Below are positions 1 to 3,000 of a stretch of DNA of 35,570 nucleotides, piece by piece. The number at the start of each line of letters is the position of its first letter. Within the stretch, counting starts at the first letter, position 1. The stretch lies in assembly GCF_003334385.1 (NCBI RefSeq), contig NZ_QOWN01000045.1; one strand, 5' to 3'. This DNA comes from Escherichia coli (lineage in GTDB: Bacteria > Pseudomonadota > Gammaproteobacteria > Enterobacterales > Enterobacteriaceae). A program made the position numbers.

Positions 1-3000
1 GGCCACCACACTTCGCTGGTGGCAGCTTTGATCAGGAAAACATAGCGCCCGCCTTTATCACGCATGGCACTGGCATGCTTCATGATGTAACGCATGCCGG
101 TGATGTATTGCCCCTCATGCTGACTGGCGCGGCTGTATGGGGGATTACCAAAGGCAGCACCTTTAAGCTCCGCAAGGCGTTCTGACCAGTCATGCGCCAG
201 CGCGTTGTCTTCCGCCGTGTAATACGCAGCACATTTGGCGTTATCACCGTCAGTGAACAGATCCAGAACAAACGGGCCAAACAGGGTGTTAATTCCCCAG
301 AAAATGTTGTCCGGCGTGCGCCACTGATCGCCCACTTCCTTCAGTTCATGGGCTGGTTTGTTCCGCAGTTCCACCAGCGCCTGGCAATATTTATTACTCA
401 TTAAGCCCCCACGTAATTCCCTGAGAGATACCACTCTTCACCTGATGCAGCCCGCTTACTGCTTTTCCGTAAACACCGTTCACGACGCGCCAGAAAATTG
501 TTTCGTTCTGGCTGGGAGTGGCTTTCACGGAATGCCGCCATCCACACCGTTGCAGCACGACGGTATAAGCCCCTGGACTCCAGTTCTTCCGCCTGGCGGG
601 TCAGGCACAAAATCACCCGCGGGTCGTTAGTGCCGACATAGAAATTGCGCACAGGTCTGGTTTCACGAACTGGTTGTGGTTCCGGCTCCTGCGCTCTCTC
701 AGTCAGGCGCGGGAAATGTCTGCGTGTATCTCCTTCACAACGGTGAGCCACACGCCCACTCTGACGTAACTTGCTTGCTGACTGCAGAACGCGCTGCCGT
801 GAGTAACCAGCAAAAGCATCTGCAATGTCTCCGGAAGTACACCCCGGATGGGCTTCAATGAATTTCTGAACGTCATTTAACAGACTCATGATCACCCCCT
901 GAATCCTGCCGGGATCTGGCTGTAGTCCACGTTGTCGTAACTGGATTTGAAGTACGGGTCTTCGCGTTTTTCGGTGTACGTGCTGACGGACGGCGATAAG
1001 CGCAGGGAAAGCTCATCCCATTTTTCCCGCAGCTTCGACGGGCTGAGCACGTTACGGCACCAGAACGGATCGCGGCTGACGCGGCTGTACATCTCGCAGA
1101 TTTGTTTGTGAGTACGACCATCCTGCACACACATCAGGCGAATTTCGTTTGCCCAAGCTGTCCAGTTCGGTTCTTTGGGACGAACCACCTCGCCGTCACA
1201 TTCGGAGGCCTGCTCGTACAGGGCGATGATTTTTTTCCAGAGCCACTGTGCGCAGGTCAAATCATCCTGCGTTCCCCACTGGCGCTTTTTAGGGCTGAAT
1301 ACAACCGCATCAGGATGGCGAGTTAAAAAATCCTGTTCATCCGTCTGCGTGTCCGGTTGCGAAGCGTCCGGACGAGAAGGTTTTTTATCTGACGGATCAT
1401 GTTTTGATTTTACTGACGGATCCCCGCCAGATTCTGACGGGTGAAAACCCGCTTTTTTGCCAGATTTCGACGCATCAAATTTTGACGGGACAGATTTTGA
1501 TGCGTCAGATTTTGACGGGTCAGAATCTGACAGTTGAGAAAATGCCGCTGCCTGAAGCTTCGCAACGTTAAGCTGATAAACATTCGACGCATTGCGGTTA
1601 CCCTGGCGACGCGCCTTACGCGTTAACCAGCCTTCTGCTTCCAGCCGTGCGATAGCCGTTCTGACGGTACTCATCCCCGCGCCAATCTGACGGGCAATGG
1701 TTTCAATTGATGGCCAGCACACACCTTCGTCATTACTGAAATCAGCCAGGCGGGCCATAATTGCCACGCTGGATAATTTCATGCCTGACGCAGCGCAACC
1801 ATCCCATACATAGCCGGTTAATTTAGTGCTCATGACCGACCTCTATTTCCCTGAATTTACGACGAAACTGTTCGAGCGGGCTGAAGCACTCATGCTCATA
1901 GCCTTCACGGAGGTAGATAACCCGTTGTGTTTCCGGCTCCCAACGAATGACTCTGACGGGCACTCCGTAGTGATCTTTGAACCAGCGGTTAACTTGTCGC
2001 AAAGGACTGTCTCCTTCTGCCGGTTGAAATCACCCACAGCCCACTCTGCAAAGCTGTGGGTTACAATTTCCCTGTCACCTGGTACATTTACTGCATAGCA
2101 ATACTCCACCTTCGCTTTTCCACCCGGTACAGGAAGCGCAATCAGTTGCGAGCGACGGTAGTGTGTTGTTAAACTGTTCATGCGTTAGTTTCTCCACAGT
2201 CACGACACGCCACGGCGCCCGGAGCTGCACACTCGCGGGCGTCACTCTTTTCTGGAGCGCAAAAGATTTTGTAGACCAGTGCTGCATGCTCCTGGAGCTT
2301 CGAAATTGACAGATACAACTCATCATTAATTGCTGTCTGCTCGTGTGGCTCCACTACCCCATCTTCGATTGCCGAACGAATCTGCTTTGAGTAACTCCCG
2401 ATCTGTTCGATGACTTCCAGCAGGCGCTGGTTTATATCGGCGTTCTCTACTTCCTCAATTTCAGGAAGCGATACGAACACCCCACCAGCAGACTGTGCGA
2501 CAGCATCCGCAATGTAGTGAGTGCCAGCTGCGCGCTGTAAAACCATTGCCCATCCCAGCGGGAAAATCTGATCGCCATCGGCACGAAGGCGGTTAAATAA
2601 TGCGTTCTCTGTTACATCCAGCCAGTCAGCAGCTTCAGCGTAACCACCCGGCAACGCCGCGATAGTTTTTCTGACAGCTTTCACGTACCACTCAGGCTGT
2701 TTTTCTACTTTCCAGTGATGCTTACCCACGGCTATCTCCTTAAAACTGTGGTTACTTTTCATCTGATGAATCTTTAATCTTTTGAAAAATATCTGGACGT
2801 AATTTTTCTTTTGATATGCCAGTGGTCTTTTCAATGAATATCGAGAGCTTTGCAGGGGGACGCTTTTCTCTGTTCAACCAGTTCCAGACATGTTGTTGCT
2901 TTACTAAATGACCGCTGCTGGCTGTGAGCTTCCGAGCCAATTCTGATTGACCACCAGCCAGAGCGATTGCCTCCGATAAGGCTAATTGCTCAGGTGTCAT

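Follow-up and report, generated by a model that had tools for sequence, protein, structure and literature searches.

Evidence for overlapping coding and antisense elements in the ymfL-ymfM region of an Escherichia coli lambdoid prophage

The early region of a lambdoid prophage of Escherichia coli has been analysed in contig NZ_QOWN01000045.1 of assembly GCF_003334385.1, of which a stretch of 35,570 nucleotides is referred to here as the window. The interval 1843-2762 of the window, between the cro-like gene and the replication gene, is very probably an e14/SfV-type early-right module that contains four overlapping elements rather than two genes. The elements are ymfL, which encodes a member of the phage 186 CII family; ymfM, the orthologue of the division inhibitor gene sfiC of prophage e14; a gene for a DUF4222 protein that lies within the 3' half of ymfM, in the -1 frame; and a predicted antisense small RNA, the orthologue of ECS003 of strain K-12. 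An initial annotation of the interval described two unassigned genes, and missed the DUF4222 open reading frame (ORF) and the antisense RNA gene. The two ORFs that it listed on the minus strand, from ATG 2762 to TGA 2178 (194 codons) and from ATG 2181 to TAG 1843 (112 codons), are present; however, they correspond to the known genes ymfL and ymfM.

Overlap of ymfM and the DUF4222 gene

The gene ymfM (1843..2181, minus strand) has 112 codons, and its stop codon is located nine nucleotides ahead of the replication-gene ATG at 1833. The Shine-Dalgarno sequence GGAG (2192..2195, minus strand) is positioned 10 nucleotides upstream of ATG 2181, within the conserved block GTGGAGAAACTAACGCATGAACAGTTTAAC, and the start codon overlaps the end of ymfL in the tetranucleotide ATGA (2181-2178). 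The encoded protein, previously considered to have no recognizable family, is identical to K-12 b1148, annotated as 'cell division inhibitor YmfM', in 109 of 112 residues (~97%), and matches phrog_1170 over its full length. The flanking genes are the same in K-12, and the three residues that differ are all in the C-terminal third of the protein. YmfM is composed of a conserved N-module, which includes residues 1 to ~60 (2181-2002), and a Ser/Thr-rich tail of residues ~61 to 112, which is predicted to be disordered and overlaps the DUF4222 gene. The 21 residues that are invariant among 26 YmfM homologues, with identities down to 42%, are all in the first 50 positions. Among 47 close variants from IMG/VR, 12 of the 19 polymorphic sites in the 5' 179 nucleotides of ymfM are synonymous in the ymfM frame. 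The predicted local distance difference test (pLDDT) scores of tail residues 67-112 in the AlphaFold2 model are below 50.

The DUF4222 gene (1823..2002, minus strand) extends from TTG 2002 to TAA 1823 and encodes 59 residues. It is preceded by its own Shine-Dalgarno sequence, AAGGAG (2011..2016, minus strand), located eight nucleotides upstream of the TTG, and it runs 11 nucleotides into the beginning of the replication gene. Residues 2-53 of the protein align to positions 3-52 of the 53-position Pfam model PF13973 (9.5e-19), and the protein matches phrog_1343 and, more distantly, phrog_285 and phrog_1153. The mean pLDDT of the AlphaFold2 model is 84, with 33 residues scoring 90 or more. The location of the start codon and Shine-Dalgarno sequence is shared by five diverged lineages, and stand-alone DUF4222 proteins are found across Enterobacterales. 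The gene is called by the Prokaryotic Genome Annotation Pipeline (PGAP) in a prophage 98.7% identical to that in the window. The available annotations are in conflict: the closest E. coli genomes, annotated by PGAP (H1-H15), contain DUF4222 and leave the region of the ymfM N-module unannotated, whereas K-12 (NC_000913) contains ymfM and no DUF4222.

Sequence variation in the overlap follows the DUF4222 frame. Nine of the ten polymorphic sites among the 47 variants are synonymous changes at third codon positions of DUF4222, and the same nine sites are all non-synonymous in the ymfM frame. The three differences between K-12 and the window are likewise synonymous in DUF4222 and non-synonymous in ymfM.

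Whether the ymfM frame is kept open was assessed in 201 loci gathered by the DNA pattern upstream of the gene, which is blind to ORF length. DUF4222 is in the -1 frame in 197 of these loci, which form 18 clusters at 85% nucleotide identity; ATG is its start codon in most of the clusters. The 197 loci have at least four unrelated N-modules ahead of DUF4222, all of which begin at one conserved site. The upstream, ymfM-type frame reads through the DUF4222 core without a stop in all 18 clusters. Synonymous resampling given each DUF4222 protein yields a probability of an open frame of 0.02-0.12 per lineage, and the equivalent frame of the long genes of this phage is open at an empirical rate of 8.3%. 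The tails contain 29-42% serine and threonine, compared to ~20% obtained by resampling (P <= 0.023 in 11 of 15 representatives). The simplest reading is that both frames are genuinely coding in the 3' half of ymfM, where DUF4222 carries the sequence constraint and the ymfM tail is constrained in its length and composition only. The ymfM frame may be held open because the disordered tail has a role of its own, or because translation has to continue uninterrupted up to the start of the replication gene.

Several observations weigh against the interpretation that both products are genuine. The lineages used to evaluate openness and composition share ancestry and are not fully independent, and the corresponding figures are indicative rather than exact. 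A preference for C-ending codons in DUF4222 could contribute to the excess of serine and threonine. The DUF4222 start is a weak TTG in this phage and in e14, and translation of the frame is a prediction. PGAP omits ymfM in near-identical prophages. AlphaFold2 models the YmfM N-module with low confidence (pLDDT 58-70), and the model is too uncertain for a fold search. A sequence search of the PDB gave nothing significant for YmfL, YmfM, or DUF4222, and none of the three proteins has a PADLOC match.

The organization of the overlap varies among related phages. In SfV-type phages (L102 and L222; Shigella phage SfV, U82619 orf37, 'immunity region'), the ORF at the ymfM position, which starts with MNSLTANNRLSQ, is open for ~279 codons, and still has a DUF4222 gene in its -1 frame. 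In a prophage of Entomohabitans teleogrylli (L092, 2501-2737), the DUF4222 core has been lost by a clean deletion that keeps the frame and is bounded by two CAG triplets, so that the sequence reads VQ followed directly by PVDHFRERFKRVDR and the stop; the ymfM-type N-module persists as a 78-residue gene which abuts the replication gene. In three IMG/VR contigs (L105, L170, and L200), the DUF4222 frame is stopped early, after 38, 21, and 34 residues, respectively, and the ymfM-like frame is open; the three loci reflect either decay of the gene or errors in sequencing. DUF4222 is fused to the replication protein Phg_2220_C in a 395-residue protein from Klebsiella (A0A7H4PJV3). Natural in-frame fusions of the YmfM N-module to DUF4222, which are 118-119 residues long and arise by a one-nucleotide indel, occur in P0059, P0065 (14 member sequences), and UniProt entry A0A2X3K2A5.

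Product responsible for SfiC activity

Expression of the ymfM ORF from pBAD24 has been shown by Ansari et al. to yield exclusively filamentous cells without Z-rings (bioRxiv 10.1101/2020.11.19.390815). The filamentation is independent of SulA, SlmA, and MinC, and SfiC was assigned to ymfM; by contrast, expression of ymfL did not cause filamentation (bioRxiv 10.1101/2020.11.19.390815). The initial annotation related the gene following cro to genes reported as toxic at that position in other prophages. A toxic function is indeed encoded in the interval; however, since the ymfM ORF causes filamentation and ymfL does not, the toxic element is the second gene and not the one at the CII position.

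The original clone contained ymfL(142-185), ymfM, and ymfN(1-92), and later work on ymfM employed deletions of the whole ORF. All the published constructs carry, and all the deletions remove, both YmfM and DUF4222. It is possible, but doubtful, that the division block is wholly or partly due to DUF4222. The YmfM tail would then be overprinted and selected to be open and Ser/Thr-rich, for instance to signal degradation or to bridge translation to the replication gene, and the OOP-like RNA would be an antitoxin-style lock in lysogens.

One alternative is that DUF4222 is the sole real gene, and that the 112-codon ymfM ORF is spurious or encodes at most a short upstream peptide. It agrees with the annotation of DUF4222 alone in H1-H15 and with the lack of both amino-acid conservation and predicted structure in the ymfM tail. 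However, it does not account for the purifying selection on the N-module with its 21 invariant residues, or for the N-module standing alone as a gene in L092, from which the DUF4222 core has been deleted. Furthermore, the Shine-Dalgarno sequence, start codon, and ATGA coupling of ymfM are conserved, all 18 clusters have an open frame where 2-12% would be expected, and the antisense RNA described below is directed exactly at the ymfM ribosome-binding site. A spurious ymfM is therefore very unlikely.

The position of DUF4222 in the -1 frame and the fusions in databases could also indicate programmed -1 frameshifting, which would join the ymfM N-module and DUF4222 into a protein of ~118 residues. 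However, the database fusions result from single-base indels at scattered sites, and no conserved slippery heptamer was seen. The point at which the two parts join shifts with the type of N-module (nucleotides 144-189), and DUF4222 has its own start codon, mostly ATG, and Shine-Dalgarno sequence in every lineage. Frameshifting is thus improbable to a still greater degree. The converse of a spurious ymfM, that ymfM is the only real gene and DUF4222 a chance frame, follows the K-12 annotation and the use of TTG as the DUF4222 start in this phage, but is the least credible of the proposals in view of the Pfam and distant PHROG matches, the synonymous variation in the DUF4222 frame, the conserved start and Shine-Dalgarno sequence, the confident AlphaFold2 fold, and the stand-alone homologues.

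A conserved, predicted antisense RNA

The fourth element of the module is a predicted antisense small RNA of ~72 nucleotides (2181..2253, plus strand), which is complementary to the start codon and Shine-Dalgarno sequence of ymfM and to the last ~70 nucleotides of ymfL. The predicted promoter (2146..2175, plus strand) has a -35 element TTGCGA (2146-2151), an 18-nucleotide spacer, and a -10 element TAAACT (2170-2175). These elements are the reverse complements of ymfM codons 11-12 (-35) and of ymfM nucleotides 7-12 (-10). In 65 unique sequences, which include at least four unrelated N-modules, codon 12 of ymfM is always CAA. The -35 element in these sequences is TTGC followed by GA, GG, or TT, the spacer length is constant, and the -10 element is TAAACT in 55, TACACT in nine, and TAATAT in one.

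The RNA would end at a terminator hairpin (2214..2243, plus strand) with an 11-base-pair stem that contains one bulged G and a loop CUGCACA, followed by the U-rich tract ACUCUUUUCU (2244-2253). In 27 distinct sequences, 99.7% of the cells of the alignment pair in the antisense orientation, and both partners vary in four of the base pairs. Wobble pairs account for 15 cells; each is G.U when read on the plus strand and would be A.C in the sense strand, and none is of the opposite kind. The predicted fold of the plus strand has an energy of -19.4 kcal/mol, comprises 90% of the ensemble, and has a z-score of -2.5, compared to -17.7 kcal/mol, 16%, and -1.1 for the sense strand. A search of both strands of 1700-3200 gave no Rfam match at E <= 1. 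The antisense RNA is annotated neither by PGAP in H1-H15 nor in NC_000913.

The corresponding RNA of K-12 has been detected experimentally. Shinhara et al. sequenced the small RNA ECS003, which begins with CAUGCGUUAGUUUCUCCAC and runs through the same hairpin (PMC3175480). Its read-rich region is 78 nucleotides long and ends after the hairpin, a northern blot gave a band of ~70 nucleotides, and the RNA was seen in all the conditions tested (PMC3175480). The antisense region of the window aligns with that of K-12, and the predicted RNA is orthologous to ECS003. The K-12 RNA has 78 nucleotides, rather than the ~72 in the window, because the K-12 spacer is six nucleotides longer. As judged from the comparison of sequences, ECS003 is a conserved OOP-like element, supported by covariation, that is shared across several unrelated N-modules.

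Some evidence is less favorable to this assignment. The promoter matches the consensus only moderately (four of six positions in both the -35 and the -10 element, with an 18-nucleotide spacer). A simple promoter and terminator scan flagged neither the promoter, which has eight of 12 consensus positions, nor the terminator, the stem of which is bulged. The authors of the K-12 study suggested that ECS003 masks the ymfM ribosome-binding site (PMC3175480), and the regulatory effect on YmfM has the status of a proposal.

The conserved hairpin might instead act in the sense mRNA as a processing, antitermination, or coupling signal, because the sense strand folds too and the hairpin is located just upstream of the ymfM ribosome-binding site. 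This function is very improbable: each of the 15 cells that depart from Watson-Crick pairing is G.U in the antisense orientation and would be A.C in the sense orientation, the U-rich tract is present only on the plus strand, and the K-12 RNA runs through the hairpin with its read-rich part ending after it. Neither strand has an Rfam match.

In L095 and L100, the 156-residue CP76-type gene ends in CAA AAA AAG TGA (~1745-1765), which includes a dnaX-like heptamer with a hairpin three nucleotides downstream. The candidate dnaX-type slippery site 'A AAA AAG UGA' is more plausibly the U tract that belongs to the antisense terminator of the opposite strand.

The CII-position gene ymfL and its cysteine cluster

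The most likely start codon of ymfL (2178..2729, minus strand) is GTG 2729, which gives a protein of 183 residues; the comparison on which this assignment is based indicates that the ATG 2762 start, and with it the previously listed length of 194 residues, is probably 11 codons too long. GTG 2729 is preceded by the Shine-Dalgarno sequence AAGGAG (2736..2741, minus strand), read from the sequence six nucleotides upstream, and an equivalent sequence precedes the GTG in K-12, L084, L086, L092, and L098. The same start is used in K-12 and in the PGAP annotation of the 98.7%-identical prophage. The position is common to six diverged relatives, the proteins of which begin with VG(K/N)HW, and the 11 codons upstream are not conserved. 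With the GTG start, cro and ymfL do not overlap and are separated by 22 nucleotides.

YmfL scores 169.9 bits, with a cutoff of 90, against the NCBIfam equivalog NF041471 ('YmfL family putative regulatory protein'), with residues 27-167 aligned to positions 2-143 of the 143-position profile. Residues 28-161 match positions 5-141 of 146 of the Pfam family Phage_CP76 (PF06892), which is the phage 186 CII family, with an i-Evalue of 1.9e-14. The protein also matches phrog_101, 'CII-like transcriptional activator'. The gene immediately follows the cro-like gene and precedes ymfM and the replication gene, and homologues are present in plaque-forming phages including SfV (orf36), SfIV, phage cdtI, Stx2c phages, and ST64B. 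The earlier placement of the gene at the CII/YdaT position is correct with respect to CII and incorrect with respect to YdaT: a Pfam scan of the 194-residue protein gave Phage_CP76 and a weak match to DUF7577, and no YdaT family. Profile membership and gene position suggest that YmfL is a lysis-lysogeny transcription factor.

The CII-like role is based on the profile and the position because the pairwise similarity of YmfL to 186 CII is not significant (BLASTP E = 13); the relation is visible through the profile only. A search of 2640-3140 for repeats of the kind by which a CII protein would activate an establishment promoter (pE) from the cro/cII junction revealed only operators and no convincing CII-type site near the cro/ymfL junction.

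The CII position in otherwise syntenic prophages holds two clearly different proteins of the CP76 family, represented by L088/L091 and L095/L100. One is of the YmfL type (VGKHHW) and the other starts with MVDNIKAAISTMCKAHPAGR; the same antisense-RNA element follows both.

The C-x7-C-x2-C motif near the end of ymfL was previously regarded as a possible zinc-binding site. The motif is present in the window; however, the equivalent sequence in K-12 is CAAPGVVASIASGCG, and the number of cysteines in the tail is four in the window, three in K-12, two in L086, and zero in L088/L091, in which the frame is shifted, and in L095/L100, in which the ORF ends earlier. Relatives thus have zero to three cysteines. 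The NF041471 and Pfam profiles both end before the tail. By contrast, the last ~70 nucleotides of ymfL are kept as DNA even where a one-nucleotide deletion places them in another reading frame (L088/L091) or where they follow the stop codon (L095/L100). The first cysteine codon of the motif (2231-2229) is in the hairpin loop, and the codons at 2207-2205 and 2198-2196 are in the body of the antisense RNA. Conservation of the antisense-RNA terminator accounts for the cysteine motif in the ymfL tail. On the evidence of these alignments, the cluster is not a conserved zinc site, and the DNA that encodes it is the terminator hairpin and body of the antisense RNA.

The view that the protein encoded after cro binds zinc and may be a YdaT-like toxic regulator, followed by an orphan 112-residue protein, is thus largely refuted. 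The motif in the window and the correct post-cro position speak for it; however, the Pfam scan gives Phage_CP76 and no YdaT match, the cysteine pattern is altered or absent in K-12 and other lineages, its DNA forms a hairpin with covariation, ymfL does not cause filamentation, and the supposed orphan is YmfM. There is hardly any probability left for it.

Proposed function of the module

These results are best accounted for as follows. YmfL, at the CII position, would act as a transcription factor of the CP76 family in the lysis-lysogeny decision. Translation of ymfM would be coupled to that of ymfL through ATGA and would give the ~60-residue N-module followed by the disordered Ser/Thr-rich tail; according to the literature, the ORF of the K-12 orthologue, when expressed, blocks formation of the FtsZ ring and accounts for the SfiC phenotype. 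DUF4222, predicted to have a Tudor/SH3-like beta-barrel fold, would be made from its own Shine-Dalgarno sequence and TTG inside ymfM, ending on the start of the O-like gene. Selection in the overlap acts on the amino acids of DUF4222, and holds the ymfM frame only open and rich in serine and threonine. The ~72-nucleotide antisense RNA, with its promoter in ymfM codons 3-12 and its hairpin terminator inside the ymfL tail, may pair with the ymfM ribosome-binding site and the 3' end of ymfL. In the lysogen it may thus restrain leaky expression of the division inhibitor, and possibly of the CII-like protein, in a manner comparable to the effect of OOP on lambda cII. During the SOS response, self-cleavage of the S24-type repressor would lead to derepression, which is expected to swamp the antisense lock. 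Of these points, the family assignments, the selection specific to each frame, and the covariation and strandedness of the RNA are results of the present analysis; filamentation caused by the ymfM ORF and expression of ECS003 come from the literature; and the roles given to YmfL, DUF4222, and the antisense RNA, like the cause of the open ymfM frame, are inferences.

Neighbouring genes and sequence repeats

The early genes are all encoded on the minus strand. The plus strand carries the repressor gene (3136-3822), whose product contains HTH_3 and Peptidase_S24 domains. The cro-like gene occupies 3000-2752 (minus strand). The O-like replication gene (1833-892, minus strand; phrog_391) is intact and contains 15-nucleotide iterons, and a PerC-like gene (895-401) is downstream of it. 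The order cI, cro, CP76, ymfM-like, replication, PerC, and Dam is also kept in diverged loci. The locus has a match in 2,708 of 5,426 complete E. coli genomes.

Within the replication gene (1384-1540, minus strand), there are approximately six repeats with a 15-nucleotide period, similar to CAGATTTTGACGGGT, and two more copies are located upstream. This array inside the initiator gene looks like the iterons of an origin, in analogy to the lambda ori. In the intergenic region between the repressor and cro genes (3024-3106), AAGTTGT/ACAACTT motifs are repeated in the inverted and direct repeats I2, I3, and D1, and probably constitute the operators for this type of immunity. The repressor gene is adjoined by a 306-residue ORF (3805-4725, minus strand) and a 67-residue ORF (4898-5101, plus strand), the counterparts of which in the 98.7%-identical prophage are named by PGAP 'BRCT domain-containing protein' and 'ClpX C4-type zinc finger protein', respectively. 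Genes of the BRCT and ClpX C4-type zinc finger kinds are unusual neighbours for an immunity region.

Relation to known systems

The module of prophage e14 in K-12 has the same order of repressor, cro-like gene, ymfL (b1147), ymfM (b1148, SfiC), and replication gene as the window. The YmfM N-modules are identical, and the embedded TTG ORF, the antisense promoter, and the hairpin are the same. By contrast, the immunity region of e14 is different, with another cro and repressor, and its ymfL tail differs by a 6-nucleotide indel and in the cysteine pattern. The replication gene of e14, a defective prophage, is truncated and fused; that of the window, the O-like gene, is intact and contains iterons.

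The OOP RNA of lambda is 77 nucleotides long. Like the RNA described here, it is a short antisense transcript whose promoter is located within the 5' part of the gene that follows the CII-position gene (lambda layout from J02459). Both RNAs enter the CII-position gene at its 3' end and stop at a GC-rich hairpin and U tract inside its coding sequence. However, the two have no sequence similarity, the RNA described here has no Rfam family, and the downstream gene is O in lambda and ymfM here. Unlike OOP, the RNA from the ymfM locus also covers the Shine-Dalgarno sequence and start codon of the downstream gene. The mechanism of OOP is RNase III-dependent, and the likeness of the two RNAs is in their layout.

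The early operon of phage 186 (apl, cII, fil, dhr) resembles the ymfL-ymfM arrangement in that cII, of the CP76 family, is followed directly by the small gene fil, annotated with 'overexpression blocks cell division' (U32222). The dhr gene overlaps the end of fil by 14 nucleotides, whereas the overlap of ymfM and DUF4222 is ~160 nucleotides. Comparison by hhalign detected no homology between Fil and YmfM or Dhr and DUF4222 (probability 0.2%). Fil and Dhr are positional analogues.

Lambda Rz/Rz1 is a known case in which a gene, small but complete and equipped with start signals of its own, is nested in another frame within a second gene and both frames are maintained. Rz1 is in the +1 frame and both products are functionally defined, whereas the constraints on the outer overlapped frame in ymfM are on openness and composition only. 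SymE/SymR is an SOS-linked type I pair, in which a growth-arresting protein is controlled by a constitutive cis-antisense RNA over the ribosome-binding site. An SOS-induced growth-arresting protein combined with an antisense RNA that covers its ribosome-binding site would be a similar arrangement, by analogy and without homology.

Each of the elements is already known: ymfL, ymfM as SfiC, DUF4222 as a PGAP call, and ECS003. The connections added by the present analysis are that the 3' half of ymfM appears to be dual-coding, with opposite kinds of constraint in its two frames, and that ECS003 is, by comparison of its sequences, a conserved OOP-like element that explains a cysteine motif in the overlapping protein. 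The latter calls for caution in the interpretation of motifs seen in one sequence alone if the coding DNA is overlapped by nucleic-acid elements. The locus encodes an SOS-linked division inhibitor, of which few are known apart from SulA. All the functional work on SfiC and ymfM has used DNA that encodes both YmfM and DUF4222.

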